Virus record (IMG/VR): IMGVR_UViG_3300050015_000312
Location: 1-63,355 of that record
Strand: one strand, 5' to 3'
DNA from: a virus
Taxonomy: Duplodnaviria > Caudoviricetes
Length of the DNA stretch: 63,355 nucleotides
Each line of letters begins with the position of its first letter. Position 1 is the stretch's first letter. Positions 10,362 through 38,176 of this stretch are shown in pieces. Under the pieces are notes generated by a model. That model did not search any database and was not told the DNA's origin. It saw only the letters and a program-made list of their open reading frames with translations. Made by a program: the position numbers and the translations under genes.

Positions 10362-10363
10362 AG

Positions 10364-11397: not shown

Positions 11398-11429
11398 ATG
11401 CCAATCAGCGAGCAGAAAGGCGGTGCCGA

Positions 11430-11804: not shown

Positions 11805-11833
11805 CGAAACGCCGGGAAGAAGGAACGAGACTA

Positions 11834-13224: not shown

Positions 13225-13226
13225 CT

Positions 13227-13613: not shown

Positions 13614-14050
13614 GCCCACGGCAAGGTCCGCCGCAGTTGACGGAGCAGCAGATCTCGGAGCTGGGCGGATACTCGCCCGAGCAGGTCGCGTCGATTACTG
13701 GTATTTCGGTCCCCACGCTGGCGAGTTGGCGCAGTCAGCGAAAAGGCCCGCCGTACCGCAAGTACGGCCGCTCGATCCGGTATCCAGCCCAGATACTTCG
13801 AGAATGGTTAGAATCGCAGACCAGAGGCTTCAATGAAGAACAAGGACGGACAGCGAGACGGGTTACGGGTACGGGGCGGAAAGTGGACGTACCGCATTTG
13901 GGTGCAAGGCCGGTGCTACCCAGGCACCACCGACTTGGCCGCCACCGAACGCAACAGGAGCGCCGCGATTCGCGACCGGGAGGAGCACAGGCGGGCGATC
14001 CTCGAGGGCCGCGAGTTTCGACGCAAGCTGGAGATCATCCCGTTCAATGA
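13610..14050 (+). CDS. xis: Excisionase-like HTH protein
   Basis: YSPEQVASITGISVPTLASWRSQRKGPPYRKYGRSIRY; directly upstream of, and overlapping, int. Confidence 0.75.
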   Translation: MSPRQGPPQLTEQQISELGGYSPEQVASITGISVPTLASWRSQRKGPPYRKYGRSIRYPAQILREWLESQTRGFNEEQGRTARRVTGTGRKVDVPHLGARPVLPRHHRLGRHRTQQERRDSRPGGAQAGDPRGPRVSTQAGDHPVQ

Positions 14051-18256: not shown

Positions 18257-19716
18257 TCCTACGCGACTATCAGGAGCAAGCCACCCACCACCTTCGAGAC
18301 GCCTATCGAGAGGGCGCACGCGCGGTGATCCTCTACAGCCCGACGGGCAGCGGCAAAACTGTCATGGCCTGCGACGTCGTCTCGCGGGCCGTCGCCAAGG
18401 GCTCACGTGTGCTGTTTATCGGCGATTCCAGCGAGATCATCGAGCAGACGAGCGCGGCGCTGGACCAGTGGTCCGTCCCCCACGGCATCATTCAAGGCGG
18501 CCGGGCCAACCGGAAGCCCTGGGAAAACGTTCACGTCGCCACGATTCAGACCCTACGCAACCGCGAACTGCCGCCCGAGGACCTGGTGATCGTCGACGAA
18601 TGTCACCTTGCCAGAGCGATCACCTGGCAGCGCGTCATCGAACACTACCGCGCCGCCGGCGCGCGCCTGCTGGGGCTCTCGGCAACGCCCGTCCGCCTCG
18701 ACCAAAAAGGCCTTGGAAAGCTATTCGACCGGCTTGTATATTGCCCGTCGATTATCGACCTCACTGATCAGGGCTGGCTCGTGCCAGTGCGAATCTTCGC
18801 GCCGCCCGGTCCGGACCTCCGCGGCGTGCACAACCAGGCCGGAGATTTCAACAAGGGCGAACTCTCCGCGGCGTGCGACAAACGCAAACTGGTAGGCGAT
18901 GTCATCGCCCACTGGCTCAAGCACGCTCCCGGGCGACTGACGGCGGTATCGGCAGTCAGCATCGTCCACAGTCAGCACCTTCGCGACGAATTCCGCGCCG
19001 CCGGCATCCCGGCCGAGCACGTCGACGGCACAACCCCACGCGAAGAACGAAAGCGGATCCTAAAGGGGCTGGAGGCCGGCGCGTTCACCGTCCTCTGCCA
19101 GGTCGACATCTGTTCGAAGGGCTGGGACTGCAAGCCCATCTCGTGCCTCGTCGACGCGCGCCCTACGATGTCGCTGGCGCGTTGGCTACAGTTTGTCGGC
19201 CGCGGGCTGCGGATTTCTCCCGAGACGGGAAAAGCAGACTGCATCTTGCTCGACCACGCCGGCAACGTCCGAAAGTTCGGCATGCCTGACGAAGAGCGTG
19301 AGTGGTCGCTTGACGGCGCCGAGGGTGTGCGCGTGAAGCCGCGCGACACCGTCGAGTCTGTCCGCATGTGTAAGCAGTGTTGGATGGCGTTCCGCAGCTC
19401 CGAGCAGACGTGCCCGAATTGCGGATGGCGCTACACCGGCCGCCTGAACGACATCGAGCACGAAGCCGGAGAGCTGCAAGAGATCCAGCGGCAGCGGAAG
19501 CAGATGGCGATCCAGGTCTGGCGCGAGCGGCACCCCGACGATGCCCGACGCCGCAAGTTCGACGAGTTTATACGTATCGGCGTCGAGCGCGGCTACAAGC
19601 CTGGTTTTGCGATCCAGCGGTACCGCGCGATCTTCTTGGAGGATCCGCCTCGGGAATGGATGCAGACGGCCTTTGTGGCGGCACGGGCGGGCGAGGGCGC
19701 GGCGGTGAACTCGTGA
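18253..19716 (+). CDS. SF2 DEAD/DEAH-box helicase
   Basis: LRDYQ, SPTGSGKT, IVDECH, LSATP, QFVGRGLR; C-terminal CxxC pair. Confidence 0.92.
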   Translation: MILRDYQEQATHHLRDAYREGARAVILYSPTGSGKTVMACDVVSRAVAKGSRVLFIGDSSEIIEQTSAALDQWSVPHGIIQGGRANRKPWENVHVATIQTLRNRELPPEDLVIVDECHLARAITWQRVIEHYRAAGARLLGLSATPVRLDQKGLGKLFDRLVYCPSIIDLTDQGWLVPVRIFAPPGPDLRGVHNQAGDFNKGELSAACDKRKLVGDVIAHWLKHAPGRLTAVSAVSIVHSQHLRDEFRAAGIPAEHVDGTTPREERKRILKGLEAGAFTVLCQVDICSKGWDCKPISCLVDARPTMSLARWLQFVGRGLRISPETGKADCILLDHAGNVRKFGMPDEEREWSLDGAEGVRVKPRDTVESVRMCKQCWMAFRSSEQTCPNCGWRYTGRLNDIEHEAGELQEIQRQRKQMAIQVWRERHPDDARRRKFDEFIRIGVERGYKPGFAIQRYRAIFLEDPPREWMQTAFVAARAGEGAAVNS

Positions 19717-19730
19717 GGCTGAGCGCCATC

Positions 19731-20783
19731 CTATCCCACCGCGTGAATCGTCGGCACGACAGCCAGCTCCTCCGCCACGTTGACCGGGATCGGCGGCAGC
19801 CAGTGCAGGATCAACTTGCGCTCGGTCTCGGCGGCCACGCCGGGCTTGGCTTTGGGCCCGGTCCAAAAACTGTGCCAGTGCGCGGTACGGATATGCGGTC
19901 GCGGGCTTGCGTGTGTGCTCCCCGGGCCGCGCTCGCGGTGTGCGGCGGACTCCTCGGCAGCGCGGATCGCGGCACCGATGCGCCAGCCTACATCCCAGGC
20001 CGCGGGATGATCCGGAGGGAACCACCGCGGGCCGTGCTTGGTGATCTTCGGTCGCGGATAGTGGGGCGCGGCCGAGTCTCCGTCATGCCGGAGGATATCG
20101 GCGTGTTGGGAGCACAAGTACAGGGTCAGCGAGATCATGGGCGCCAGCTCGGCAGCGAACTTGGCCGAGAAATCGACGTCTGGCAAAGCGGCACCACCCG
20201 ATGCCTCTCGCGCGGCGGTGAGCCAGGCGCGCAGGCCCTCTTCGACCGTGCCCACGATTGGCAGCGGAAGGGAGACGTCCAGCACCTCGCCGTAATCGAC
20301 GTGGAAGCGGAGCCAAGGTGTCTCCGCAACGCCGTCGGCGTAAGATCGCGCATCCCAGTCAATCGAGACGAAAAAGCCATAGCTCTCCCGCCCGCGAAAG
20401 ATCGCTCCCGGCGTCTCGATGTAGCAGCACCATTCCGGCAGCCGCAGCAACACCTCGCCTGGCAGATCGCCCGTGATGGGCGTATCCCAGAGCGCCTGAA
20501 GCATCGTCGGGTCGAAGCGATAGATACCCTGCGCAGTGCGCCACGCCGCGAGACCAGCCAGGGCTCCTGCGGTGGATCGATCGATGTCTCCATGCACCGC
20601 ACTTACCGCCGCCCACACGGCGCCCGAGGGGATAAAGCACCACGCGGGCCAGCTCGGCAATTCACGGCCGCGACAGTCGCGCGCTGCGTCGAGGATGCGC
20701 CAGCAGTCTGGGGTCTGGGCGGCCATGCGCGTCAGGTAGGCGCGAAGACGCTCGACGGTCTGCTCGGTGTCCGGCGTCAGCAC
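19731..20783 (-). CDS. acrVA2: AcrVA2/FinQ-family protein (putative anti-CRISPR)
   Basis: AWRTAQGIYRFD, LLRLPEWCCYI, LTLYLCS, WDVGWRIG, PRPHIRTAHWHSFWTG and HWLPPIPVN match AcrVA2 motifs recalled from memory. Confidence 0.75.
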   Translation of the reverse strand: MLTPDTEQTVERLRAYLTRMAAQTPDCWRILDAARDCRGRELPSWPAWCFIPSGAVWAAVSAVHGDIDRSTAGALAGLAAWRTAQGIYRFDPTMLQALWDTPITGDLPGEVLLRLPEWCCYIETPGAIFRGRESYGFFVSIDWDARSYADGVAETPWLRFHVDYGEVLDVSLPLPIVGTVEEGLRAWLTAAREASGGAALPDVDFSAKFAAELAPMISLTLYLCSQHADILRHDGDSAAPHYPRPKITKHGPRWFPPDHPAAWDVGWRIGAAIRAAEESAAHRERGPGSTHASPRPHIRTAHWHSFWTGPKAKPGVAAETERKLILHWLPPIPVNVAEELAVVPTIHAVG

Positions 20784-20999
20784 TTATGGCCTCGCTTGCC
20801 TGCCGTCGCCTTGGTGTATTTTCCGCAGGCGCAACGATCCGAAGACTTGGGCCTTCCACCGAGCCTTCCAACCTCGCGCGGATCGTCGCCGGTCTTGGTC
20901 CACCGACGCTTACCGAGATTCGATGCTGGGCTGTCCTTCACGTGTCCTCCTTCCGGAACTTGCCGGCGGCAGGGCCGATCCCGCCGCCGGCTGGAAATG

Positions 21000-22001
21000 C
21001 TACAGTTTCACCGTCCGCGTAAATTGGAACGGACCACACGGAATGGTGATCTCGGCGGTGTAGTACGGGGGCGCGGCGCTCTCGCCCTCACCGTCCCAGC
21101 CATCGTCCCGCAGACACTCGCGCACGCGGTCGAACGTCACCGCGTAGCCCTCCGGCAGTTTCGCCTTCAGCGCGCGCCAGGCGGGATAGACCGAACGCGG
21201 AAGGGCATCCACGTCGGCAGAGCCGCACGGGCAATCGCTGTCTTTACAGACGTGCGGTTCTGTCGCGGGTTCCGGCACTCCATGCTCCGCGAATGCCGCA
21301 TCGGCGATCAGTGCGAGGGCGGCCTTGCGGGACAGCAGTCCATCGGCGAACTGGTCCCGATCTTCGTCGGTCCCGTGCTCGGAGATCCAGGCCTCAATAA
21401 AATTGGACTTTGCCTGCTCTTTGGCGAGCTCAGCGACGTCTTTGGCCGCGCGGTCAGCGGCGTTTCGGCGCTCGATCTCCACCCTGAGCGCGTCATGTTT
21501 CTCCGGCCACCAATTCGCCGGACCCTGGATATCACCCTCTCCGAGCTGACGGACGAGCGCGCGGATTCGGTCGTACAATTCGCCGGAGCGAGCGGACGGG
21601 TCCGCCATGAATTTCCGATAGGCGGCCTCGGTGAGCTGGCGGTTGTGCTCACCGTTTTCGGCGAGTACGCGGGCCTCTTCTTCCGCCGCCTCCGCCAGTT
21701 TTGCGCGGCCGACGCGGACCTGCGCCAGGTCCGGAACGCCAGAAAAATAAATTCCGCTCCCGCCATTCCAGGTTTCGACTGTCCCGCTGGCGCGAAAGGC
21801 GCGGCCGATGCCATTAGATCCCGCCATAACACTCGTCAGGTCTACGGTGATAGAGCCGTCGCCCGCGACCGGGAACAACTCCAGATCTTCGGGCGCCACC
21901 TCGATGGTAATGACCTGTTTGCGCGCTACCGGCTGGCCCGTGGCCGCCATCTGCTCGCGTTGTGCCTGCTCGGTGAGCAGGTATGTGATCGTGGCTTGCA
22001 T
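21000..22001 (-). CDS. Hypothetical protein (moron cassette)
   Basis: AGGAG RBS before ATG 22001; acidic; small Cys cluster. Confidence 0.7.
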   Translation of the reverse strand: MQATITYLLTEQAQREQMAATGQPVARKQVITIEVAPEDLELFPVAGDGSITVDLTSVMAGSNGIGRAFRASGTVETWNGGSGIYFSGVPDLAQVRVGRAKLAEAAEEEARVLAENGEHNRQLTEAAYRKFMADPSARSGELYDRIRALVRQLGEGDIQGPANWWPEKHDALRVEIERRNAADRAAKDVAELAKEQAKSNFIEAWISEHGTDEDRDQFADGLLSRKAALALIADAAFAEHGVPEPATEPHVCKDSDCPCGSADVDALPRSVYPAWRALKAKLPEGYAVTFDRVRECLRDDGWDGEGESAAPPYYTAEITIPCGPFQFTRTVKL

Positions 22002-22121
22002 TTTCGTCTCCTGCCGGCTCATGGCCGGCTTGTACTGCGGGGTTGTGACCGCTCCGGCGATGCCGGACCCGCATTAGGCCGGGAGCGCTCCCGGCTCACT
22101 CTGCGATGGCGGTGCGGGGCA

Positions 22122-22535
22122 TCAGCGGGGCTCCCGGCGGACGAGGTACAGATAGTTTGCGTCGGATCTGCACGCCACTCGGATACCCATCTCCGCCAGC
22201 GCGTGGCGTACACTCGACTGCCATTCTCTGCGCCGATTCTGCCCTGGGTACTCGATGCGCAGCGCCTCGCTGTTACTGAGCTGCTGTACGGCAGCGATGA
22301 TATCGGCGTACTTTCCCTGCCTCCTAGCCCTTTCTTGCGGCACGGAAGTTGTCGGAACAACGCTCATGCGGTACGCGTGAGTCTGGACCGCCGCCGGAGC
22401 AGGTCTCGCCGCATGACATATCTGCCAGATGCGGGAACGAGAGACCCCTATGCGTTCGGCAATCTCCTTGGGAATCATCCCCTTTGCGTGCATCTCCAGT
22501 ACTGCGGGCTGGTCGATTTTGCTGATGCGCGCCAT
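22122..22535 (-). CDS. HTH protein (Aca-like candidate)
   Basis: GMIPKEIAERIGVSRSRIWQI HTH; GGAGG RBS. Confidence 0.7.
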   Translation of the reverse strand: MARISKIDQPAVLEMHAKGMIPKEIAERIGVSRSRIWQICHAARPAPAAVQTHAYRMSVVPTTSVPQERARRQGKYADIIAAVQQLSNSEALRIEYPGQNRRREWQSSVRHALAEMGIRVACRSDANYLYLVRREPR

Positions 22536-23063
22536 TTAGCGGGCCTCCGCTGGGTTTCTCAGGTCGTCCTCGGAGACCTCCCCAATGGCGAGCAAGTCCG
22601 CCACGGTTTTTTGCGGCCCGCTGCTCTCTGTGGTATACGCAGGCAGCGCGGATACCTCGTCGTCGCTCATCTCCCCGGCATTCCAACGGGCAGCCTGCTC
22701 CGCAGACATCTTGATGGTGATCCATCCATCCACGATGTATTTGTTCGCCTCCGCTCTCGATCTGATCTCCGCCTGCGTCAACCGCGCAATGAGCGTCTCC
22801 AGCGCGGCGCAGATCTTCGTGGCAGCCTCACGCTCGGTGACATCGTCCCACGCCGTCAGGTCGCCCAGGCGTTGCCGCAGACTCATCGAGCCTCCGCGCC
22901 ATTCTCGGAAGCTCCCCACGGTCTCGCAAGCCACCGGCCCGATGGCCTCGGTATATCCTTCCAGATACATCTCAGCCACGGCCGCGCGTGCGGCCGGTTC
23001 CGGCAGCAAGTGAGCATCCACCTGGTCCGCAATGATTTCGGCGTTCGTGTTGATGTAGATCAT
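22536..23063 (-). CDS. Acidic hypothetical protein (moron cassette)
   Basis: GGAGG RBS; abuts the next gene. Confidence 0.65.
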   Translation of the reverse strand: MIYINTNAEIIADQVDAHLLPEPAARAAVAEMYLEGYTEAIGPVACETVGSFREWRGGSMSLRQRLGDLTAWDDVTEREAATKICAALETLIARLTQAEIRSRAEANKYIVDGWITIKMSAEQAARWNAGEMSDDEVSALPAYTTESSGPQKTVADLLAIGEVSEDDLRNPAEAR

Positions 23064-23087
23064 TTCATCCTCCGTCTAGCCTCGCGT

Positions 23088-23294
23088 TCAGCGGGAAAAC
23101 CACTCAGCGTCAGATCCAACAAAAGCGCGGAGTTCGCTGCCATCCACGCAGGAACAACCCCTATCGAGGCGGATGTCGTACATGCCCGTCAGGATTCGGG
23201 CGTGGACATCCCTAACGACCGCGTGAAAGTTCTGTTCCGTGTAGAGTACCCGCTGCCCTTCCGCGAACTTTTCAACCGCTTTGTTGTTTTCCAT
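23088..23294 (-). CDS. Small hypothetical protein (moron cassette)
   Basis: GGAGG RBS. Confidence 0.6.
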   Translation of the reverse strand: MENNKAVEKFAEGQRVLYTEQNFHAVVRDVHARILTGMYDIRLDRGCSCVDGSELRAFVGSDAEWFSR

Positions 23295-23372
23295 GTCTCA
23301 CTCCTCCATCTGGCCGTCCGCCGATCCATGCGTCGGGCGGTCAGGTGGGCCGGGGCGAGCCCGGCTCAGATG

Positions 23373-23624
23373 CTACGCGGCGGCTGGCTGCCAGTTGGCG
23401 CCGACCTCGATCCGTATCGTCGAGTGGCAATACACCATGTTGCTCCAGCCGCTCTTGCTGTAGGCGCTGGGGTGGCTGATCCGCGTGCCGCCGCGGGTCT
23501 CGTAGTGCCAGGACTCGCCGGTGAGCTTCGGCGCGGCATTGGTCTCGGGGATGGCAACTATCGGGTAGGGGGTGCCGGATGCGCAAGCGGCCTTCCGGAT
23601 CTGGGTTTTCAACGTAGCGTTCAT
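23373..23624 (-). CDS. Small hypothetical protein, first gene of the moron
   Basis: GAGG RBS; directly downstream of the consensus promoter. Confidence 0.6.
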   Translation of the reverse strand: MNATLKTQIRKAACASGTPYPIVAIPETNAAPKLTGESWHYETRGGTRISHPSAYSKSGWSNMVYCHSTIRIEVGANWQPAAA

Positions 23625-23687
23625 GACGCCTCTTTTCTGCCGGCGATGCCGGCTCAATCTCGATCAAGCTGTGCTCAATCTAGAATC

Positions 23688-23716
23688 AGTATAAAAGCTG
23701 CGCTGGTTTTTGTCAA
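23688..23716 (-). promoter_or_regulatory. Near-consensus sigma70 promoter driving the moron
   Basis: TTGACA-17 bp-TATACT on the minus strand, in an AT-rich patch. Confidence 0.85.
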
Positions 23717-23761
23717 TAGATATATTTCGTGTGTTTTCAACAACATGAGAGAGGCTACGGT

Positions 23762-24148
23762 ATGACCCTCAGCGCCAACGATCTCACGAAGCTCCTGCTC
23801 CTGGAGATCCCGGTCCGCCTGGCCCCTGCCCGCGCCTGGAGGCGCAACGTCCTCGCGGCAAAGATCCCCGATGGCCACGGCGGCCCGGGGCGCTTCGTGC
23901 GCTCGACGCAGCTCCCCGGCGAGGCCGACATCACGGGCGTGCTCGACATCAACGGCGTCGGGGTCCGCTTGGAGGTCGAGGTGAAGGCGGGGAGCGACCG
24001 GATACGGCCCGCGCAGCAGGTCTTCGGCGACATGATCCGGAGCATGGGTGGGATCTACTGCGTCGCCCACGATGTCGAGCGCGCGATCGCGGAGATCACC
24101 GCTGCCCGCACGGAGCTGGCGCGCCGGATCCAGGCGACAAACTCATGA
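23762..24148 (+). CDS. VRR-NUC domain nuclease
   Basis: PGEADITG...LEVEVKAGSDRIRPAQQVF...GGIYCV. Confidence 0.85.
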   Translation: MTLSANDLTKLLLLEIPVRLAPARAWRRNVLAAKIPDGHGGPGRFVRSTQLPGEADITGVLDINGVGVRLEVEVKAGSDRIRPAQQVFGDMIRSMGGIYCVAHDVERAIAEITAARTELARRIQATNS

Positions 24149-27820: not shown

Positions 27821-28090
27821 ATGATCCGAATGTCCACCGCCCTACTGCTGCTGCAGTCGATCTCGCTCGAGCCGGCCGCCTGGAAGCTCATCGAACTGCC
27901 CATCGTTGGTCTGATCGTGTGGCTCTGGATCCGGGATCAGCATAGCCGGGAGCGGCAACAGAAGGCTTCTGACGCCCGTTACGAGGCGCTGGTGGAGCGT
28001 GTAGTCACCGTCGTTGAGGCGAATGCCACCACGGCGCGCGGGCTGACGGATGCCATCACGGCCCGGCCGTGCATTCGGGAGCGGCGGTAG
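27821..28090 (+). CDS. Small membrane protein (holin-like)
   Basis: AGGAG RBS; TM LPIVGLIVWLWI followed by a coiled coil. Confidence 0.5.
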   Translation: MIRMSTALLLLQSISLEPAAWKLIELPIVGLIVWLWIRDQHSRERQQKASDARYEALVERVVTVVEANATTARGLTDAITARPCIRERR

Positions 28091-28091
28091 T

Positions 28092-28577
28092 GTGGCGGCC
28101 AAGCGAGGCAGACCGTCGAAGTATCAGCCAGAGTTTCCCAGGCAGGCGTACAAGCTCTGCCTACTCGGTGCGACGAATGAGAAGCTCGCGGACTTCTTCG
28201 GCGTAGCGGTCAGCACCGTCGACAAATGGATCAAAGAGATTCCGGAATTTTCGGGTGCCTTAAAGAGGGGGCGGGACGATGCGGATGCGCGGGTCGCGAA
28301 TTCGCTCTTCCGTCGCGCGCTTGGCTATTCACATAAAGCGGTCAAGATCTTTCAGAGCGATGGTCGGAGCTTCGAACACGAGTATATTGAGCGGTACCCT
28401 CCAGACCCCACTTCTTGCATTTTCTGGATGAAGAATCGACAGCCGCAACGGTGGCGGGACAAGCCAGCGACCGAAGACGGTGACGACCGGCTGGATGAAG
28501 TATTGGATCTGATCCGAAATGGCCCAGCAATCCCAAATAGCAAAGCGCAATCTGGCACCAAGGGCAAGAAAGCTTAA
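28092..28577 (+). CDS. terS: Terminase small subunit
   Basis: GRPSKY...LLGATNEKLADFFGVAVSTVDKW...PPDPTSCIFWMKNRQPQRWRDK. Confidence 0.88.
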   Translation: MAAKRGRPSKYQPEFPRQAYKLCLLGATNEKLADFFGVAVSTVDKWIKEIPEFSGALKRGRDDADARVANSLFRRALGYSHKAVKIFQSDGRSFEHEYIERYPPDPTSCIFWMKNRQPQRWRDKPATEDGDDRLDEVLDLIRNGPAIPNSKAQSGTKGKKA

Positions 28578-29808
28578 GCCGTTTGGGGAGAAGGCGCACC
28601 GCTTTGCATTCCGGCGGCCCGCTGAGGATAGGCGCATCACGATCCTGGAGGGCGCGGTCCGCAGCTCGAAGACTTGGGCCATGATCATGAAAATCCTCGT
28701 TCTGTGCAAATACGAGGTGCAGGGACAGAGACTGGTCACTGGGGCTTCGAAAGGCACGATCAAAGCGAACGTCCTCGACGACTTGTTTGAAATCGTAGGC
28801 GAGAAGAACTACGACTACAACCAGCAGTCTGGGGAGTTGAGGCTCTTCGAGACCTGGTGGCGCGTCATCGGCGGCAAAGACGAAGGTTCCGAGAAATTTC
28901 TACGCGGTTCCACGGTTGGCGTAGCGGTGTCGGACGAGCTGACGCTGATGCCGAAGTCGTTCGTATTCATGCTCCTGAGCCGCTTGAGCCCGGAAGGTGC
29001 GCGCTGGTATGCGACCACGAACCCGGACAGTCCTTACCACTACGTTAAGAGCGACATCATCGAGAACCCGGACCTGAAAGACTATCTCGAAGTCATTCAC
29101 CTCGGACTCGAAGACAACCCGAACCTGACGGACGACTATAAGGAATTTATCCGGCGGTCCTACACCGGGGTCTGGTACCAGCGTTTCGTGTTGGGCCTGT
29201 GGGTCATGGCCGAGGGCGCCATCTACCGCGACGTGCTGACCGAAGACACCTACTACGACGATGCGACCCGGCCGGTGGGTCTGCTGAGCCGCGGGGGACA
29301 CGTCGAGCGCTGGATACCTCTGGACTACGGCACAACTAACGCGCTGGCAGCTATCGACATCTACGACGATGGCGACACCGTATGGGCGGACCGCGAACAC
29401 TATTACGACTCGCGCGCGGAAGGCCGGCAAAAGACCGATAGCGAGTATGCGGACGACCTGATCAGGTTCATCGGCGGCGGCGACCCGCGCACCTGGCCCG
29501 GAATCATCATCGATCCGAGCGCTGCCAGTTTTCGGGCGGAGTTGCTCAATCGTGGTTTGTACGTCATCGACGCCGATAACGAAGTGGTTGACGGGATTCG
29601 GCGCGTGAGCACGATGCTCGGCCGGAAGAAACTGCGGATCAATCGGCAGGGATGCCCGAACGGCGTGCGGGAGATGCAGACGTACTCCTGGAACGAGAAG
29701 AAATCCGAAACGGGCAACGAGCAGCCGGTCAAGAAGTATGATCATTGGCCGGACGCCTGCCGGTACTACGTCAAGACGCGCATCGGGGACTGGAGGCTGG
29801 CGGCATGA
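28519..29808 (+). CDS. terL: Terminase large subunit (PBSX-like)
   Basis: EGAVRSSKT, VSDE, TTNP, DYG, DPSA and DHWPDACRY motifs. Confidence 0.93.
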   Translation: MAQQSQIAKRNLAPRARKLKPFGEKAHRFAFRRPAEDRRITILEGAVRSSKTWAMIMKILVLCKYEVQGQRLVTGASKGTIKANVLDDLFEIVGEKNYDYNQQSGELRLFETWWRVIGGKDEGSEKFLRGSTVGVAVSDELTLMPKSFVFMLLSRLSPEGARWYATTNPDSPYHYVKSDIIENPDLKDYLEVIHLGLEDNPNLTDDYKEFIRRSYTGVWYQRFVLGLWVMAEGAIYRDVLTEDTYYDDATRPVGLLSRGGHVERWIPLDYGTTNALAAIDIYDDGDTVWADREHYYDSRAEGRQKTDSEYADDLIRFIGGGDPRTWPGIIIDPSAASFRAELLNRGLYVIDADNEVVDGIRRVSTMLGRKKLRINRQGCPNGVREMQTYSWNEKKSETGNEQPVKKYDHWPDACRYYVKTRIGDWRLAA

Positions 29809-30221
29809 GAATCGCTGGGCTCGAAAGCCGACTGGCTCGCCTTGAGCGCGCAGCGTTCTTGCGAAGCCAAATCGTGACCCTGCGCGAGAAGATGAGCATA
29901 ACGCAGCGCGAATTAGCGGACAGGCTCGGCGTGACGGTAACGAGCATTTCGCGGTATGAAAACGGAAAGGAACCAAGCCGACAGGTTCTAAGGAACCTAG
30001 CCGATATCGCTCAAGTCGCGAGACTGAGCGATCTATCTGATGCGTTCACCAGAGCGTGCAGTTTACGCATTGCAGCGAGAATCGAAAAATTGCCCTCCAT
30101 TGGCACACAGCGGCGTGTATCACTGTGCGACCTGAAGCGCTGGAAGCTGGCGATAGAAGCAGTGAAGGAATTGCGGGAAATAGCCGAAGAAATCGGGGTC
30201 TACGTAGGTGGGCAATCATGA
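29805..30221 (+). CDS. XRE-family HTH protein
   Basis: LREKMSITQRELADRLGVTVTSISRYENGKEP. Confidence 0.8.
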   Translation: MRIAGLESRLARLERAAFLRSQIVTLREKMSITQRELADRLGVTVTSISRYENGKEPSRQVLRNLADIAQVARLSDLSDAFTRACSLRIAARIEKLPSIGTQRRVSLCDLKRWKLAIEAVKELREIAEEIGVYVGGQS

Positions 30222-31042
30222 CCAACCCAGCCTGGGCCCGCCTGGTCCGGATGTATGAGCAGGGAATCTGGGCCCTACTCAACCGCCCGGGTGCCATGGC
30301 GGATCCGGGACATCTTCCGCAGCTCGTGATGAGCAGCACCGAATTTCAGGAGGCCGCCTGGAAACTGGCCCAGAACATGGTGCGCGAAGTGGCGCGAGTC
30401 AACGCAACCTCCTGGCGGGCCGCCGCGATCAAATCCACCCGGGCGCGTCAGATCTACGCGGCCCTGCGAGCCGAGATCGAGCGCAACGGGCTCGGGCCGG
30501 AGCTGAGCCGGATGGCAGCCCGCAACGCCGAACTCATCACCAGCCTGCCGGCGGAGATCTCCGAGCGGGTCACCGCGCGCGCCGCGGAGCTCGAGCAGAA
30601 AGGCGCGCGGGCTGTTGAGATCGAGCGAGAGATTCGCCGGCTGACGCCGGAGCTGGCCGGCAGCCGCATTCGCCTGATCGCCCGTACCGAGATATCGAGA
30701 GCCGAAACGGACCTGACCCGCGCGCGGTCGGAGCGGATCGGGATTGACTGGGCGGTGTGGCAGACCAGCGAGGACTCTCGGGTCCGTAAATCACACCGGA
30801 ATTTGGATCGCGTGTTGATGAGGTTCTCTGATCCGCCGCAACCTGAAGCTTTGATCGGAGAGCACAGCACTCTGGGACACGGGCTCGGGGGACAATTCCC
30901 GAATTGCAGATGCGTCATGCTTCCCCTGGTTTCTCTGGACGAGGCGCACTTCCCGGCCCGCGCGTACATGAATGGATCGATCCGCCGGCTGACGAGAGGT
31001 CAGTTTATGACTATCGCTATCGGGTATAGGATGGCGGCCTAA
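30218..31042 (+). CDS. Head morphogenesis protein (MuF / SPP1 gp7 family)
   Basis: RLIARTE...WQTSEDSRVRKSH...NCRC. Confidence 0.88.
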   Translation: MTNPAWARLVRMYEQGIWALLNRPGAMADPGHLPQLVMSSTEFQEAAWKLAQNMVREVARVNATSWRAAAIKSTRARQIYAALRAEIERNGLGPELSRMAARNAELITSLPAEISERVTARAAELEQKGARAVEIEREIRRLTPELAGSRIRLIARTEISRAETDLTRARSERIGIDWAVWQTSEDSRVRKSHRNLDRVLMRFSDPPQPEALIGEHSTLGHGLGGQFPNCRCVMLPLVSLDEAHFPARAYMNGSIRRLTRGQFMTIAIGYRMAA

Positions 31043-31144
31043 CTGGCCGGATCCGCCGCATGACACGCGCCGAGTTCACCCGCGTGATTGGGATTCAGAT
31101 CGCCGCATAGCGCGGACCCGCATAAAACCATTCCCGCATAAAGC

Positions 31145-33556
31145 ATGGCCACCGCCCCCACTATCACCAATTGCGCCATCGGCCGCCGGTTCCGCGCGCG
31201 CGATACCCGCGCCCTGGAATACGGCCTAATGCCGCGCGGCCGCACCACCGCGACAGATGCCTTTACAAACGCCGCGGCGCGGATGGGCTGGGGCACGCCG
31301 AACCTCGCCGAGTCCGCGGACTATACGATGGTCCGCATCAGCTTCGACTACTGGCTGCTCATCACCCTTTACCGGAATCACTGGATCTCGCGGCGCATCG
31401 TCGACACGCCGGCGCAGGACATGGTGCGCGCCTGGCCGAAGATCAACACCGATCTCGCGCCAGAGGATCTGACGCGGGTCGATCGCGCGCTGCGGCACAC
31501 CCGGACGAAATCACAGATTCTGACGTCGCTCAAGTGGGCGCGGCTGTTCGGCGGCGCCGGCGCGCTGATCGTGATCGACGGGCAGGAGAACGAGCTATCC
31601 GAACCGCTCAAGCTCGACAACATCGAGCCGGGCTCCTATCGCGGAGTGATCCCGTTCGACCGTTGGACTGGCATCAGCCCGCTCGGAGACGTGGAGACGG
31701 ACATCTCCCGCCCGAACGATTTCAACCTGCCGAAGTATTACCAGGTGACCCAGCCGGGCGCGGAGACGTTCCGCGTGCATGCCAGCCGCATCCTCCGCTT
31801 CACCGGTCCCTCGGTTCCGACGCCCGAGTATCAGGCGCAATCCTGGTGGGGCATCTCGGCGCTCGAACCGGCGTACGAGGAAATTCGTAAGCGCGATAAC
31901 ATGAGCTGGAACATTCTTTCGCTCACATTCCGCGCCTCCCTGATTGGGATGAGGTCGAAGGACCTCGCGCAGATGCTCTCCGGCGCCGGGATGAACACCC
32001 AGGCGTTGCAGGGGTTCTATTCGCGCATGGAAGCGATGAACCATCTGATGAGCAACCAGAGCATGCTGGTGCTCCCCGAAGAGGGCGGCCTTGAATCCAT
32101 CAACTACACCTTCTCGGGCGTGTCCGACGTCTACCAACAGTTTCAACTCGACATCGCCGGCGCCGCAAATCTCCCAGCCTCGCGCCTGTTCGGGCGCACC
32201 ATCACCGGACTCGGGCAGTCCAACGATGCCGACGAGCGTCTCTATGAAGAACGGATCGCGCTCGATCAGGAAGAATCGCTGCGGCCGCAGCTCGAAAAGC
32301 TCTATCCGGTCATTTGCATGTCGGAACTCGGCGAGGTTCCGGACGACCTAGAAATGGCCTTCCCGAGCGTACGCGTGTTGACCGAAGAAGAGAAATTGAA
32401 GCTCGCGACGGACACGACCGCAAACGTGGTTGCTCTAGTGAACGCCGGCATGCTGAGCAAGCCCCAGGGGTTGAAGGAACTCAAGCAGGCGAGCGACATC
32501 ACGGGATTTGGGACCAACATCACCGACGAGGACATCGCGGCCGCGGAGGAGGCGGAGGCTGCGGGGTTTGGCGGGCTGGGCGAGGAGATGCCGCCAGAGA
32601 GGCAAGGCGGGGCGCGAGCGGCTGATGCATGGGAAGAGTCCGAACATCCGCGCGAGAAATCCGGAGAGAATGGCGGGCAGTTCACGAAGGGGAGCGGTGG
32701 AACAAGCGCCAGAAGCAACGCCGCCTCCACGTCGCGCGCCCTTGAGCCAGCATCCGAGAATCGTAAGGAGTGGCCCGAGCACATTCAGAAGCTGAAACTT
32801 CCACCGGCATGGACCGACGTAAAGCTCAACCTGGACCCCAACGCCGATTTGCTCGCTGTCGGGAAAGATGCGAAGGGCCGCTCGCAGTACGTCTACTCGC
32901 AGCGGTTTCAGAACAGCCAGGCCGAAGCGAAGTTCGCCCGCATCAAGGAACTCGACGCGAAATTTGGAAAGGTCTGGAACCAGAATACCGACCGGCTGAA
33001 GTCGGACGACCCGAAGCAGCAGGAACATGCGGAATGCGCGCGCCTAGTGATGGCGATGGGCATCCGGCCTGGAAGCGATTCCGACACCAAGGCGAAAGTG
33101 AAAGCCTACGGCGCCACGACGCTTGAGGGGAGGCACATAGTCATAGAGGACGGCCAAGTATACCTGCGCTTCACGGGGAAAAAGGGCGTGTCGATCAATC
33201 TCGCGGTGAGCAATTCGGACATCGCGCGCGGCCTGCTCGACCGTGCATCAAGGGCCGGGGCTGGCGGAAGATTATTCCCTGCGACCTCAGGCAATTCGCT
33301 GCTCGAATACACCCACACGCTCAATGGCGGAGGCTTTAAAACGAAGGATTTCCGGACGCTGCTCGCTACCCGATCAGCCATGAAGCACGTGGAGAAGGTG
33401 GATCCACCCAAAAACGAGAAGGACTATAGGAAGCGGGTGATGGAGATAGCCAAAGCCGTATCTTCCCGGCTCGGCAATACGCCCACTGTGGCGCTCCAGA
33501 GTTACATCAACCCGGTCGTCTTCGCCCCATGGAGGTCCGCCCTTGCTGCTGCCTGA
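31145..33556 (+). CDS. DUF1073-type portal protein fused to type IB DNA topoisomerase
   Basis: N-terminus: LYRNHWISRRIVDTPAQDMVRAW, WARLFGGA, VHASRILRF, LFGRTITGL. C-terminus: PPAWTDV, GKDAKGRSQYVY, GIRPG, YGATTL, FTGKKG, KDFRT, LGNTPTVALQSYI. Confidence 0.9.
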   Translation: MATAPTITNCAIGRRFRARDTRALEYGLMPRGRTTATDAFTNAAARMGWGTPNLAESADYTMVRISFDYWLLITLYRNHWISRRIVDTPAQDMVRAWPKINTDLAPEDLTRVDRALRHTRTKSQILTSLKWARLFGGAGALIVIDGQENELSEPLKLDNIEPGSYRGVIPFDRWTGISPLGDVETDISRPNDFNLPKYYQVTQPGAETFRVHASRILRFTGPSVPTPEYQAQSWWGISALEPAYEEIRKRDNMSWNILSLTFRASLIGMRSKDLAQMLSGAGMNTQALQGFYSRMEAMNHLMSNQSMLVLPEEGGLESINYTFSGVSDVYQQFQLDIAGAANLPASRLFGRTITGLGQSNDADERLYEERIALDQEESLRPQLEKLYPVICMSELGEVPDDLEMAFPSVRVLTEEEKLKLATDTTANVVALVNAGMLSKPQGLKELKQASDITGFGTNITDEDIAAAEEAEAAGFGGLGEEMPPERQGGARAADAWEESEHPREKSGENGGQFTKGSGGTSARSNAASTSRALEPASENRKEWPEHIQKLKLPPAWTDVKLNLDPNADLLAVGKDAKGRSQYVYSQRFQNSQAEAKFARIKELDAKFGKVWNQNTDRLKSDDPKQQEHAECARLVMAMGIRPGSDSDTKAKVKAYGATTLEGRHIVIEDGQVYLRFTGKKGVSINLAVSNSDIARGLLDRASRAGAGGRLFPATSGNSLLEYTHTLNGGGFKTKDFRTLLATRSAMKHVEKVDPPKNEKDYRKRVMEIAKAVSSRLGNTPTVALQSYINPVVFAPWRSALAAA

Positions 33557-33704
33557 TGTCTTTTTCGGATCGCCCGAGGCGGGTTCTCTCGACTGGCGTG
33601 ACGAGGTTTTCGATGACGGCGCGCCGGACGACGATGCGGAGCTTGCGGAGACACCCGAAGACGTAGCGGCGCTACTCGGCTTCGACCCACTGGACGAAGC
33701 ATGA
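33543..33704 (+). CDS. 53-aa highly acidic microprotein (not in the ORF track)
   Basis: GGAGG 7 nt before TTG; MLLPDVFFGSPEAGSLDWRDEVFDDGAPDDDAELAETPEDVAALLGFDPLDEA; ATGA-coupled to the next gene. Confidence 0.7.
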   Translation: MLLPDVFFGSPEAGSLDWRDEVFDDGAPDDDAELAETPEDVAALLGFDPLDEA

Positions 33705-34114
33705 TCCCCGTCACCCAAACCCGAACCGGAGCGAACGGCAACTGTATGGCCGCGGCGCTGGCCTCGATCCTCGAAGTCCCGATGCACGTGGTGCCCGACT
33801 TCGGCGGCGATGACGTGTGGCTCGGCAACGTCCAGAGCTTCCTCGCGGGCTTCGGACTGTACTACGTCCAGGTTCCTCCGGACGATCCGGTGATCGAGAC
33901 CGCTTTCGCTCACGGCGAGGTCTTCCACGTGATCGAAGGCACCAGCCCGCGCGGCCGCCGGCATGCCGTCGTTGGGCGGAACGGCGAAATAATCCACGAC
34001 CCGCACCCGCAGGACGGAACGGGCCGCGGTCTGGTCGACGTCGACGCCTACGGCCTGCTGTGCGCGCGCATGCTCCGGCCCGCGGGTGGCGTAAACCCGT
34101 CTGGCCTCTACTGA
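33701..34114 (+). CDS. Papain-like (C39-type) peptidase-fold protein
   Basis: Q...GNCMAAALASIL, HAVV and IHDP give a Cys-His-Asp triad. Confidence 0.65.
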   Translation: MIPVTQTRTGANGNCMAAALASILEVPMHVVPDFGGDDVWLGNVQSFLAGFGLYYVQVPPDDPVIETAFAHGEVFHVIEGTSPRGRRHAVVGRNGEIIHDPHPQDGTGRGLVDVDAYGLLCARMLRPAGGVNPSGLY

Positions 34115-34155
34115 TCAGAAAACCAACACCGGAGAACGAACACCGGAGAACGAAT

Positions 34156-34464
34156 ATGGCACTCGTAAACTTCACACCCTCGACCTACGGCTGCATCTCG
34201 GCCGGAGGAACCTCCGCTGCGCACGCGCTCCCTGGCACAACGGGGGTCACGCTGCTGATAACCAATATCGGGCCTTCGCCGGCGGCTGTGTTGCTCGGAG
34301 CCGACAGCGAAGAGACCCCGCTGGTCGTTACGTCCGCTACCGGAGTGGTCGTGCTGCCAAGCCAACCTCTCGCGCTGGCGGTGGGGGCGAACACGCACAT
34401 CGCGGTCATCGGCCTCGGATCGAACGCCGTGCTGAACCTGGCTCGCGGAGATGCGGCAGCGTAA
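34156..34464 (+). CDS. Small beta-rich virion-type protein
   Basis: GGAG RBS; Ala/Gly/Thr/Val-rich. Confidence 0.6.
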   Translation: MALVNFTPSTYGCISAGGTSAAHALPGTTGVTLLITNIGPSPAAVLLGADSEETPLVVTSATGVVVLPSQPLALAVGANTHIAVIGLGSNAVLNLARGDAAA

Positions 34465-34754
34465 TGATGCGACCCAACACGAATGATCGTCGCGCTCGGC
34501 TGCATGCGGCGCTGGACCGGCTGCTGGACGGAGAGCCGGCGCGCGACTCGCTGGGCACGAAGCTCGACAAGGCGCTCTTCGGCATTTCGGAGAACAGGAG
34601 CGGTGATGGCGTTCTCGGCGCTGTCGAGCAGAGCATAAAGCGCGCAACACCGTCCGTTACCGGCGCCCTCACGACCGACCCCGCAAGTATTGGCAGCAAG
34701 GATGAGCGGAACGAGCGGTTGCAGCGGGCTTACGACAGCATCCGGATCGGGTAA
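34464..34754 (+). CDS. Mini-scaffold-like protein, paralogous to segments of the prohead protease
   Basis: DRRARLHAALDRLLD and NERLQRAYDSIRIG mirror motifs in 34770-36293. Confidence 0.6.
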   Translation: MMRPNTNDRRARLHAALDRLLDGEPARDSLGTKLDKALFGISENRSGDGVLGAVEQSIKRATPSVTGALTTDPASIGSKDERNERLQRAYDSIRIG

Positions 34755-34769: not shown

Positions 34770-36293
34770 ATGGCCTTCAGCTACTACGCCTCTAAGATCA
34801 GCGACAACATCGGTAAAACTCCGGAAGGATTTCTGATCTGCCAGGACGCCGTCATCGCGCGAACAGGCTGGCAAACGTACACCATCGGGGAACTTCCCGC
34901 CGACGCGCTGAAGGAACTCGATATCGACACCAGCGATCCTTCCGCGTCGATCGACGTATATCGCAGCCCGGAAGAAGTCTTCTCACCGGCGACGATTGCA
35001 AGCTTCGAAGGTAAGAGCGTCACCGACAATCATCCGCCCGCCGAACAGTTCGTGAATCCGGACACGATCACCCAGTACGAACTCGGTCACGTCCAGAACG
35101 TGCGCAAGGGCAAGGCGCCGCTCGAATCCGGCGAGTGGCCGCTGTTGGGCGACATCTTCATCAAGCGCGAGCCGCTGCTCGGCAAGGTGAAGGCCGATCA
35201 AGTGCGGGAACTTTCGTGCGGTTACGATTACACCCTCGCCAGAGATGGCGACCGCATTGTTCAGACCGAGATCCGCGGCAATCATGTCGCGGTCGTGCCG
35301 CGTGGCCGAGCAGGAGCCGAGGCCCGCATCAAAGACTCCGCGCCAGAGGCATCGGAGCGGAACACAGCCGGCGGCGGCTCCACCGGCAACCAAAAGGAGA
35401 AACCGAAAGTGCCGAATATGTTGAAACACCTGCTCGGGCTCGGCCTCAAAGCCTTCGCGGCCGATGCCGATCCCGAAAAACTGGCGGAAGCAGCCGAGGC
35501 CATCAGAGAAGAGAAGAAGGCCGAGGTTCCGCCGCCGGAAAAGAAGGCCGACGACCGCCGCGCCGACGAAAAACGCGCCGATGATCGCCGCGCGGACGAA
35601 AAAAAGGCGGACGATTGCAAAACCGATGACAAGCGCGTCGGCGACAAGCGCGCCCGCTTCCACGCCATGCTGGACCGCATGCTCGACGAGTCCGAGAAAG
35701 GGGACGAAGACGAGCACACTGAGGACGCGGACATGGACGAGCTCCGCGAGCTGCTCGGCGAATTCCTCGAAGAAGGGGAAGGGGAATATCCGGAGCGCGC
35801 GGGCGAGCCGGGAGCCGAGGGCGCCGAGGGTGAAGAGGTTCCCGCGCGGGACAGCGACCCGGACGACGTAGCACTCGCTGGATCGTTCTACGGTGGAAAG
35901 TTCCACCCCTACCGCGATAGTGACCACTATTCCGCGGCCAAGGCCGGCGAAGGAAAGAAGAAACGCCGCGCCCACGATCGCCTGATCGAGCCGGTGACCG
36001 ACGAACACGCCGCCGCCGATCATGAGCCCACCGCGCGCGACGTGCTCCAGGCGCTCCGGCCCGTGGTCGCACGGTCCAACGATGCCGGCCTGCGCCGCGC
36101 ATTCAACGCGCAGCTCGGGCGCTTCACGCGGTCCTCGCGGGCTTCGTCCGGGAGCTACGCGGGTTTCTCGGGCGCCACCCGGCAACGGGCCGCCGATGAA
36201 AGCAGCCAGCACCAGCCCGAACACAATCAGAAACTTCAGACGGCATACGATGCGATCCGCACCGGCAAGCCGATCAGCAAGGAGGAAAAGTAA
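34770..36293 (+). CDS. DUF2213 prohead protease/scaffold
   Basis: TPEGFLIC...IARTG.Q.Y, VYRSPEEVF, VTDNHP, RELSCGY, GNHVAVVPRGRAG...RIKD. Confidence 0.9.
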   Translation: MAFSYYASKISDNIGKTPEGFLICQDAVIARTGWQTYTIGELPADALKELDIDTSDPSASIDVYRSPEEVFSPATIASFEGKSVTDNHPPAEQFVNPDTITQYELGHVQNVRKGKAPLESGEWPLLGDIFIKREPLLGKVKADQVRELSCGYDYTLARDGDRIVQTEIRGNHVAVVPRGRAGAEARIKDSAPEASERNTAGGGSTGNQKEKPKVPNMLKHLLGLGLKAFAADADPEKLAEAAEAIREEKKAEVPPPEKKADDRRADEKRADDRRADEKKADDCKTDDKRVGDKRARFHAMLDRMLDESEKGDEDEHTEDADMDELRELLGEFLEEGEGEYPERAGEPGAEGAEGEEVPARDSDPDDVALAGSFYGGKFHPYRDSDHYSAAKAGEGKKKRRAHDRLIEPVTDEHAAADHEPTARDVLQALRPVVARSNDAGLRRAFNAQLGRFTRSSRASSGSYAGFSGATRQRAADESSQHQPEHNQKLQTAYDAIRTGKPISKEEK

Positions 36294-37099: not shown

Positions 37100-38176
37100 A
37101 TGAGTTACGATCCGAGAAAAGCAGCACCCGCACCTCCGCCCTACCTTTCGTATGGCCGCGGCCGCGGTTTCGACCAAGCGCGCGGGCGGGGCTTCGATGC
37201 CGCCGGCGCGTCCGGTTTCGCATTCCTGCAGTCGATGCTCGAAAAGTTGGACACCAACCTCGTCGAGCCGTTGCAGGCAGTCACCCATCCTCGCGACATC
37301 AAAGTGAACATCGGCGGCGGCTGGCCGGAGTTCATCTCGACCTTCGCGAGCAATTACGCCACCACCGGGGCGAAATACTTCGGCCTGCAGGCAAACCGCA
37401 ACACCGAGACTCCGGAGACCCAGGCGGATGTCCAGAAGGCACTCTGGAACACCTACATCTGGGCGCAGTCGATGACGATCTCGTACATCGACCTGAAGCG
37501 GTTCGAACAGGCTCAGCGGTCCGGTCTTCCGGCTCCGTACAGCCTCCAGAAGCTCTACGACCAGGCGGTCGACAGCAACTGGAACAAAGCGCTGGATTAC
37601 GTCACGTACTGGGGCTTCAACGGCGATGCGGGCCTGATCAACAACCCGAACGCGCCGTCGACGGCACTCACCACGGCGGCGGCCGGCGGCACCACCTGGG
37701 CCGCGAAGACGCCGCAGGAGAAACTGAACGACGTCAATCTCCTGATCACCACCATCCTCACCAACTCCGGCGTCGACATGCAGCGCGCCATGCCGGATTC
37801 GATGCTTGTCCCGCTGACGCAGTACGCGCTTCTCTCCAACCCGTTCACCCTCGCGGGCATCGGGAGTTTCGACTCGATCAAGACTTACATCGAGCGCAAC
37901 TGCCTGGCGGCGATGCAGGGCCGGAAGTTCGAGATCAAACCCCTGCCGAACGACTGGTTGGCGAGCCAGGGAGCGGGCACCCCGGCAACCACGCGCTCGG
38001 TCGTCTACCGAAACGACGAGGACTGCCTGTACCTCGACGTGCCGCAGCCCAAGGTCCAGACCATGACCGTTCCGGTGCTGGAAGGCGCGGGCGCCTGGAA
38101 GACCGCGTTCGGCGGCTGCATGTCGCAGGTGATCTTCAAACGCACCACGACGATGTGCTACGGGGATGGCATTTAG
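37100..38176 (+). CDS. Major capsid protein (DUF2184-type)
   Basis: Position and size; FLQSMLEKLD...YWG...GLINNP...WAAKTPQE...YGDGI. Confidence 0.85.
   Translation: MSYDPRKAAPAPPPYLSYGRGRGFDQARGRGFDAAGASGFAFLQSMLEKLDTNLVEPLQAVTHPRDIKVNIGGGWPEFISTFASNYATTGAKYFGLQANRNTETPETQADVQKALWNTYIWAQSMTISYIDLKRFEQAQRSGLPAPYSLQKLYDQAVDSNWNKALDYVTYWGFNGDAGLINNPNAPSTALTTAAAGGTTWAAKTPQEKLNDVNLLITTILTNSGVDMQRAMPDSMLVPLTQYALLSNPFTLAGIGSFDSIKTYIERNCLAAMQGRKFEIKPLPNDWLASQGAGTPATTRSVVYRNDEDCLYLDVPQPKVQTMTVPVLEGAGAWKTAFGGCMSQVIFKRTTTMCYGDGI

Follow-up and report, generated by a model that had tools for sequence, protein, structure and literature searches.

Enzymes carried on the structural proteins of phage heads have been described before. 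The main text of Iyer et al. 2017 (PMC5512222) reports polyvalent proteins in which portal and MuF proteins are fused to PBECR, 2H and InPase domains, and proposes that they are packaged and injected. The main text of Jamet et al. 2017 (PMC5576092) describes MuF carriers with variable toxin domains that are encoded beside portal and terminase genes. The gene considered here lies at 31145..33556 (+ strand) of a linear virus record from IMG/VR (IMGVR_UViG_3300050015_000312; 63,355 bases, CheckV completeness 74%), the whole of which is called the window. It encodes a protein of 803 amino acids (aa), P0001, in which a phage portal is followed by a type IB topoisomerase (TopIB).

As in the polyvalent proteins treated in the main text of Iyer et al. 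2017, such as the portal-InPase protein of Burkholderia phage BcepF1, a head carrier and an enzyme are joined in a late-gene context, and the InPase, NUDIX, ART-PolyVal (ADP-ribosyltransferase, ART) and 2H/Acb1 domains of that class also occur with the TopIB cassette. The TopIB cargo and a conserved junction tag are additions to it, since the same main text, supplements aside, has the word topoisomerase in a reference title only. The fusion also resembles the MuF polymorphic toxins, as the main text of Jamet et al. 2017 presents them, in having a conserved N-terminal head carrier and a variable C-terminal enzyme. It differs from them in that the carrier is a portal, the cargo is by its sequence a relaxing enzyme and no evident toxin, and no immunity gene was found; that main text mentions neither topoisomerase nor the HPR motif of the tag. 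An earlier note on this DNA had ranked the fusion as the best candidate for a new system. It is better described as one case of a widespread, swappable cassette within the known class of head carriers and effectors; what is new is TopIB as a cargo and the junction tag that it shares with other cargo. The balance of evidence tilts toward a portal with a swappable head cargo of the polyvalent type, the TopIB of which would probably be released inside the head and ejected with the DNA, by analogy with the virion TopIB of poxviruses.

Poxviruses package a TopIB in their virions, and it acts early in infection. The variola (2h7f) and vaccinia enzymes are viral TopIBs, as is the phage domain, and variola TopIB is the best structural match of the phage model. 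The poxvirus enzyme, however, belongs to a eukaryotic virus and occurs unfused in its core, whereas the phage domain is cargo of a portal, and packaging and early action would have to be supposed for it. The TopIB of Deinococcus radiodurans (2f4q/3m4a) has the same two-domain, poxvirus-like organization with a catalytic pentad that aligns residue for residue; the phage domain differs in its shorter N-terminal domain and in being embedded in a structural protein of the phage head. Cellular and plasmid TopIBs are about 30-36% identical to the phage TopIB, lack the tag and do not lie beside portal genes.

The open reading frame (ORF) begins with an ATG and runs as one open frame through all 803 aa. 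Its portal core, aa 72-426 (31358..32422), matches PF06381 (Phage_portal_3, formerly DUF1073) with E 9.4e-93 over profile positions 3-353 of 357. A match to PHROG_146 ('portal protein') spans aa 29-525, and TIGR01555 scores 203.5 bits against a cut-off of 196.25. Among solved structures, the portal half finds the portals of Pseudomonas phages Pam3 (8hds, E 4e-32) and E217 (8fvh, E 1e-15), so that membership in the portal family rests on both a full-length family model and solved portals. These two structures have 12 chains each, and by homology with them a dodecameric ring would be expected here. Profiles of the fusion family match no window ORF other than 31145-33556, which is thus the only portal, as well as the only TopIB, within this 74% complete record, and it lies in a terminase-portal-protease-capsid module.

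The TopIB half begins with a short N-terminal domain (aa 546-585, 32780..32899), of which aa 546-575 match PF21338 (Top1B_N_bact, E 3e-7, profile positions 20-49 of 49). The catalytic domain follows at aa 587-803 (32903..33553), and PF01028 (Topoisom_I) matches aa 587-783 with E 1.4e-17 and 64 bits against a cut-off of 23.7. With phmmer, aa 546-795 align to D. radiodurans TopIB (2f4q, E 2.4e-25), and the C-terminal part also matches variola TopIB (2h7f, E 5.8e-10). In the HMMER alignment, R641 (GIRPG), K679 (GKKG), R737 (KDFRT), N778 (LGNT) and Y787 (SYI; codon 33503-33505, + strand) stand opposite 2f4q residues 137, 174, 239, 280 and 289, which reportedly form the catalytic pentad of the Deinococcus enzyme (Krogh & Shuman 2002). 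The Arg-Lys-Arg-Asn/His-Tyr order that characterizes TopIBs is conserved, and the R-K-R-N-Y form is invariant in 28 of 28 aligned fusions, in 22 of 22 rows of a tag-TopIB alignment and in all 150 of the best representatives from a library search described below.

An AlphaFold2 (AF2) model of aa 491-803, calculated from 22 sequences, has a mean predicted local distance difference test (pLDDT) score of 85. Its top Foldseek matches are variola TopIB (2h7f, E 2.6e-14, TMq 0.61) and Deinococcus TopIB (3m4a/2f4q, E about 7e-14). The model thus shows the two-domain clamp fold of TopIBs, with an N-terminal beta domain and a catalytic domain resembling tyrosine recombinases, the former being shortened and having three strands in the model. 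This short domain carries the conserved pattern WPEHI..LPPAW..GKDAKGRxQYVYS, and the alignments begin only at residue 41 of the Deinococcus and residue 16 of the variola enzyme. Judged from its residues, the domain is a catalytically intact type IB topoisomerase of the bacterial/poxvirus subfamily, whose members relax supercoiled DNA without a cofactor by way of a 3'-phosphotyrosyl intermediate. Both the 803-aa fusion of a portal with a TopIB and the complete pentad, as claimed in the earlier note, are therefore borne out. Within the ORF, the TopIB part has a GC content of 0.588 and a third-position GC content (GC3) of 0.736, compared with 0.628 and 0.828 for the portal part, a weak compositional sign of a separate arrival of the cassette. 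Expression of a free tag-TopIB from an internal start was considered and rejected: the ATG at aa 483 has a GGAG just 1-2 nt upstream and is unconserved beyond close relatives.

The same architecture was found on many other contigs. A homologue search with aa 520-803, confined to proteins of 441-1406 aa, gave 552 matches, and PF06381 and PF01028 occur together in 65 of the 120 matches listed (hand count). One of these proteins, the portal-TopIB fragment P0004, carries the NCBI name 'anti-CBASS Acb1 family protein' with only PF21338, PF06381 and PF01028 as listed Pfam domains; the name has probably spread from portal-Acb1 fusions and mislabels PF06381 portals. In IMG/VR, PF06381 is present in 15 of 45 ORFs, from a domain scan of the window and 44 of 48 loci that left out L017, L019, L037 and L042 with their 5'-truncated ORFs. 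A tag-TopIB profile searched against 1.84 billion cluster representatives matched 10,159 proteins at E<=1e-3, of which 2,165, cellular-type TopIBs included, reach E<=1e-30. Among the best 150 representatives, all above 410 bits and taken without a length filter, a PF06381-type portal lies N-terminal to TopIB in 39, the protein exceeds 700 aa in 81 and is at most 450 aa in 32, and in 120 no more than 15 aa follow the TopIB.

The TopIB is 44-77% identical to the window copy across homologues with different carriers, while the portals of the 28 aligned fusions fall into two very different subtypes and identity over the whole protein is about 33%. Such conservation across divergent portals, and across metagenome-assembled genomes (MAGs) labelled with very different phyla, fits a universal substrate such as DNA. 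Besides PF06381 portals, the carriers include Mu-type (PF06074) and lambda-type (PF05136) portals, MuF (PF04233) and DUF2213 (PF09979), and TopIB is co-fused with NUDIX, InPase, Acb1 (PF23474), 2H phosphoesterase, ADP-ribosyltransferase and zeta-toxin domains. The features of the polyvalent class are thus present, namely an enzyme fused to a portal or MuF carrier in a late-gene context, and the same effector domains shuffled among carriers.

Genomic context was counted in 60 phage-type loci, 48 from IMG/VR and 12 from MAGs. Many of them hold stand-alone TopIB genes of about 300-430 aa that are still within head modules, between portal or MuF genes and protease or capsid genes. The orders are MuF, TopIB, DUF2213, major capsid protein (MCP) in L015; portal, MuF, TopIB, DUF2213, MCP in L020; portal, TopIB in L049 and L023; and portal, MuF, TopIB in L057. 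A MuF gene lies near TopIB in 31 of the 60 loci and a DUF2213 gene in 16. In a FastTree tree built from the final 270 residues of each TopIB envelope, for the 150 representatives and the window (151 domains; branch support not examined), the state with or without a portal changes 34 times over 40 portal-bearing tips, compared with a mean of 35.2 in 200 label shuffles. This means either free movement of the cassette between carriers or a lack of resolution in the tree.

Close relatives of this portal carry other cargo or none. Five further relatives share the portal, p137, DUF2213 and MCP types of the window and differ in the C-terminal cargo of the portal. InPase stands in place of TopIB in L073 and L074, and a weak ART-like match in L077. 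The portal of L076 has 502 aa and neither cargo nor tag, and that of L075 (3208-6747) has 1,180 aa with an unassigned extension. In the L075 portal, weak Hint and LAGLIDADG matches interrupt the sequence behind position 319 of the Pfam portal model, which by sequence looks like an intein inside the portal gene; P0102 also lists Hint_2. The C-terminal portal slot is therefore polymorphic within one phage lineage, and since sister portals bear InPase, a weak ART-like match or nothing, the slot is generic and the portal works without TopIB.

Portal and TopIB are joined by an acidic and then Gly/Ser-rich linker (about aa 465-545, 32537..32779) of low conservation in the alignment of the 28 fusions. 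The string quoted in the earlier note corresponds to aa 491-516 (about 32615-32692). In the AF2 model, the linker at aa 491-529 is predicted to be disordered, with pLDDT below 50 at aa 491-495, 506-511 and 516-529. Within it lies the junction tag DAWEESEHPREKSGENGGQF (aa 494-513, 32624..32683), which stands out as conserved columns in the 28 fusions: conservation is at least 90% at E498, H501, P502, R503 and F513 and complete at G511. The consensus of the tag is [DA][DA][ED][FW]xE[SAG][DKE]HPR, followed by 3 or 6-7 residues, G[KQ]F and a G/S-rich stretch. Among the 150 best representatives, 108-111 have an aligned HPR.

The regular expression HPR.{2,10}G.[FW] was scanned over 2,904 ORFs (558,769 aa) from 71 sources, namely the window together with the loci collected. 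It gave 66 matches, compared with a mean of 2.5 and a maximum of 6 in 50 residue shuffles. The extended form of the tag is present in 57 of the 66 matches, in 44 ORFs from 35 of the 71 sources and always on the TopIB strand, in keeping with the earlier suggestion that HPR...GxF linkers occur on cargo domains of phage head proteins. The tag precedes TopIB in both fused and stand-alone genes, occurs 2-4 times within polyvalent ORFs and is also found at the N-termini of neighbouring genes. Other Pfam domains of the proteins that bear it are NUDIX, Acb1, ART-PolyVal and DUF2213; it stands before NUDIX, Acb1 and ADP-ribosyltransferase, and InPase domains are likewise preceded by it. The tag is covered by no Pfam family. 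A 35-aa query searched against solved structures at E<=10 matched only an unrelated engineered repeat protein, so that the tag is in no PDB entry. The terms 'HPR' and 'linker' are absent from the main texts of Iyer 2017 (PMC5512222) and Jamet 2017 (PMC5576092). In L058, a MAG contig labelled 'archaeon', a 2,411-aa ORF with TopIB at its end (1734-8966) precedes one of at least 1,906 aa (9124-14841), which has four junction tags and six ART-PolyVal stretches.

Phage T4 loads its internal proteins and its Alt protein into the prohead by way of a short N-terminal peptide. The prohead protease trims them behind a Glu, and they are ejected together with the DNA. Prohead proteases of this type cut after hydrophobic-x-Glu. 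The invariant [FW]-x-E of the junction tag, followed by S, A or G, resembles such a site, and by this analogy the tag would be a putative point of cleavage. Unlike the T4 capsid targeting sequence, with which it has no sequence homology, the tag has an HPR...G[KQ]F part without a T4 counterpart.

If the tag is cut, two products of the head module are candidates for the protease. The first, p137 (33701..34114, +), is a 137-aa protein encoded directly downstream of the portal-TopIB gene. None of its 104 homologues has a Pfam family, and Q6, C15, H88 and D100 are invariant. While Foldseek alone gave a weak result (E 0.03) for its model (pLDDT 91), comparison by VIA with C39 double-glycine peptidase domains matched ComA (5xe8, Z 9.9, root-mean-square deviation of 3.1 A over 109 residues), PCAT1 (8vp3, Z 9.7) and a LahT-type domain (6mpz, Z 9.2). 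From this C39-like papain fold in the model, p137 is likely a small cysteine peptidase in the phage head module and a candidate processing peptidase. It is confined to this phage lineage and was found near TopIB in 3 of the 60 phage-type loci (L004, L019 and L032) in addition to the window copy. The idea that it is a peptidase specific to the tag was rejected: p137 follows a portal without cargo or tag in L076 and is absent from most loci that bear the tag, and the two are therefore not coupled.

The second is the 507-aa DUF2213 protein (34770..36293, +; PF09979, E 1e-37), which PHROGs annotates as a head maturation protease. Its N-domain has H88, S149 and N171-H172 invariant in 15 homologues, a pattern that would suit a prohead protease of the His/Ser/His kind. 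Like scaffolding proteins, it has strong charge and repeats in its C-terminal half. By sequence, then, the protein is a candidate for a combined head maturation protease and scaffold; no solved relative of it was found. A complex prediction of the N-domain (aa 1-200) with the tag region (aa 478-545) scored 0.03 against a mark of 0.32 in a run without controls, and speaks neither for nor against binding. By eye, the C-terminal half of the DUF2213 protein has two short motifs, RARxHAxLDRxLD and LQxAYDxIRxG, in common with a 96-aa ORF just upstream (34464-34754, +), which may be a small scaffold-like paralogue of it.

Nearly all genes of the window are on the + strand. Both terminase subunits, the small (28050-28577, +) and the large (28519-29808, +), are assigned jointly by PHROG_309 and PHROG_2. 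An ORF for a small XRE-type helix-turn-helix regulator (29745-30221, +; PHROG_8 and others) follows and thus sits inside the packaging module. Next is the MuF-like head morphogenesis gene directly upstream of the fusion (30056..31042, +; PF04233, E 2.7e-12; PHROG_324), listed at 328 aa, the real start of which is probably later than listed. The portal-TopIB, p137 and DUF2213 genes are followed by a gene for a virion structural protein and by that of the major head protein (37100..38176, +; PHROG_264, E 2.7e-38). Further downstream are a tail sheath, a tape measure protein with a lytic domain, a baseplate hub and a baseplate wedge; the phage is contractile-tailed. Upstream of the head module are an integrase, ParB, a helicase and a primase/polymerase-like protein. 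A 1,462-aa ORF (19377-23765, +) has no Pfam or PHROG match and is accompanied by several long antisense ORFs; it may be a genuine giant gene or a frame artefact of high GC. The target site of poxvirus TopIB is CCCTT, which occurs 74 times in the window against 102.6 +/- 9.5 expected from dinucleotide shuffles that leave coding constraints uncontrolled, a weak depletion to which no interpretation is given.

Among 50,697 deposited phage records, 1,118 matched and none covered the fusion by 80% or more. The TopIB part alone gave six weak matches in these records at 24-31% identity, from a Burkholderia phage, Rhizobium phages, an uncultured phage record and a free TopIB of a Bacteroides phage. Plasmid records hold only cellular-type TopIBs of at most 36% identity, with matches starting after the tag. 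The species-representative genomes yielded the 12 phage-type loci, whose MAGs bear the labels of very different phyla, together with 10 cellular-type TopIB genes from Pedobacter/Bacteroidota at about 30% identity and without tag or portal. The cassette thus looks specific to uncultured tailed phages with a very broad host range. In open-access papers and preprints, supplements aside (those of Iyer 2017 could list TopIB architectures), no portal-TopIB fusion or TopIB in a head module was found described, in agreement with the earlier statement that no characterised example is known.

The reading that is preferred here, of a swappable cargo that is released and ejected, can be set out as follows. 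Because the C-terminal crown of a portal faces the capsid interior, an assembled dodecamer would hold up to 12 TopIB domains within the head, on flexible linkers of about 75 residues each. Portal, MuF or scaffold-protease proteins would in this way serve as carriers that load enzymes into the procapsid. During head maturation the TopIB would be cut free in or near the tag or the Gly-rich stretch, and would then leave the capsid together with the DNA. In the first minutes of infection it could relax supercoils, or otherwise break and rejoin strands, of the incoming genome or the host chromosome. The sequences themselves show the fusion, its catalytic completeness and fold, its recurrence and modularity, the position in the head module and the polymorphic cargo. 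We infer the presence of TopIB in the virion, its cleavage, its ejection and its target DNA, with the TopIB packaged by poxviruses as the precedent. The Acb1, NUDIX, ART and zeta-toxin partners would, by their family names, act in the host cytoplasm. That the cassette is found on other carriers or alone, and shares polypeptides with Acb1, NUDIX and ART, argues against a role that depends on position at the portal and favors release and ejection.

Several observations weigh against this reading. A domain tethered to the portal would need to be cut before ejection, and the cleavage site is putative. The tag lies at the extreme N-terminus of some stand-alone proteins (e.g. L011 9497-10093, and L009), where a cut would remove almost nothing, and it may therefore be a docking signal rather than a cleavage site. 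With DUF2213 in 16 and p137 in 3 of the 60 loci, no one protease accompanies the tag. The Deinococcus and poxvirus enzymes have a longer N-terminal domain, and activity of the phage domain is not guaranteed. No virion proteomics, cleavage or activity data were found for any member of the cassette family, and none of the 50,697 deposited phage records contains one, so that no cultured model is at hand.

The alternative that fares best, although still unlikely, is that TopIB stays tethered to the portal as a swivel inside the capsid and releases twist arising from headful packaging or ejection, which was the option that the earlier note put first. It would account for the portal being the carrier in 39 and the TopIB being C-terminal in 120 of the 150 best representatives, and for the finding of TopIB on portals from three families. 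MuF is a second frequent carrier or neighbour (31 of 60 loci), and in SPP1 it binds the portal according to the main text of Jamet 2017 (PMC5576092). TopIB needs no cofactor, so it could act inside a capsid. Many copies, however, are stand-alone or fused to DUF2213 or to multi-enzyme polyvalent proteins, the sister portals bear InPase, a weak ART-like match or nothing, and the carrier state is scattered over the FastTree tree much as random labels would be (34 changes against a mean of 35.2). The earlier note had placed the topoisomerase domains either at the DNA channel or free inside the head. Cargo inside the head, probably ejected, remains the favored part of that proposal, while a role that needs a tether at the channel is disfavored by the other carriers, the stand-alone copies and the swapped cargo.

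Less probable again is a late role in the producing cell, in replication, concatemer processing or recombination, with the fusion providing co-expression or localization to the procapsid and the enzyme not being carried onward. The gene does lie within a late, structural operon, and a survey of jumbo phages (PMC7824862), in the text relevant here, mentions only free TopIB-like enzymes, which it discusses with replication and recombination functions. A late role would leave unexplained why position in the head module is strict even for stand-alone copies and why the tag is common to Acb1, NUDIX and ART, whose family names imply early action in the host cytoplasm; in addition, the window has replication functions elsewhere (helicase, primase/polymerase and ParB).

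It is improbable that the TopIB is a toxin-like effector that damages or relaxes the DNA of a host or competitor and is paired with a cognate immunity factor. The architecture is that of the MuF polymorphic toxins in the main text of Jamet 2017 (PMC5576092), with an N-terminal head carrier and a variable C-terminal enzyme; the cargo is polymorphic, and TopIB is co-fused with ADP-ribosyltransferase and zeta-toxin domains. Against this, the full pentad, religation residues included, is kept in 150 of 150 representatives as in ordinary relaxing enzymes, and no conserved small immunity-like gene travels with the cassette, p137, the one conserved gene downstream, being peptidase-like and specific to one lineage.

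An artefact of assembly or gene calling, or a decaying gene, is scarcely credible: there is no clear Shine-Dalgarno sequence before the ATG, and the one contig that supports the fusion at the read level belongs to a run from which the window itself may derive, but the same open fusion recurs on dozens of independent contigs, which excludes an assembly artefact, and the N-terminus is conserved with homologues, the catalytic residues are all kept and no stops lie within the match. The contig in question, 34,916 bases from peat-metagenome run X1, spans 31000-34200 with 0 differences and 0 gaps; independent support for the open frame comes from the homologous fusions on other contigs. Run X2, from a second study at a depth of about 3, gave identical short contigs over 31281-32611 and 33564-34193, none over 32612-33563 and none bridging, and is uninformative on the TopIB part.

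The preferred reading, that of a released and ejected cargo, can be carried further, tentatively and with considerable doubt. The tag would be a general signal for loading, processing or both in a plug-and-play cargo system of tailed-phage heads, in which whatever enzyme follows it, borne by a portal, MuF or scaffold-protease protein or by none, would enter the procapsid and be delivered along with the DNA. TopIB would be the most conserved of these cargoes; injected at the outset of infection, it would reset DNA topology or, without ATP, join the ends of the incoming genome or protect them, and the clade would be the hidden viral source of bacterial TopIB. Forterre & Gadelle 2009 (PMC2647321) proposes, in the passage on this point, that bacterial TopIB stems from a viral TopoIB group 'not yet discovered', and the cassette family is a candidate for that group.

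If the preferred reading is true, this would be the first known case of a topoisomerase as a built-in part of a phage particle, and phages would manipulate DNA topology from the first moment of infection. To our knowledge, control of topology by a virion-borne enzyme is documented among viruses for poxviruses only. The cassette is abundant and strongly conserved yet absent from 50,697 deposited phage genomes, which marks a blind spot of culture-based phage biology. Should the tag be a signal for loading or cleavage, it would allow virion-delivered effectors to be predicted from sequence and foreign proteins to be loaded into phage heads. With this family in hand, the conjecture of Forterre and Gadelle that bacterial TopIB is of viral origin becomes directly testable by phylogeny.

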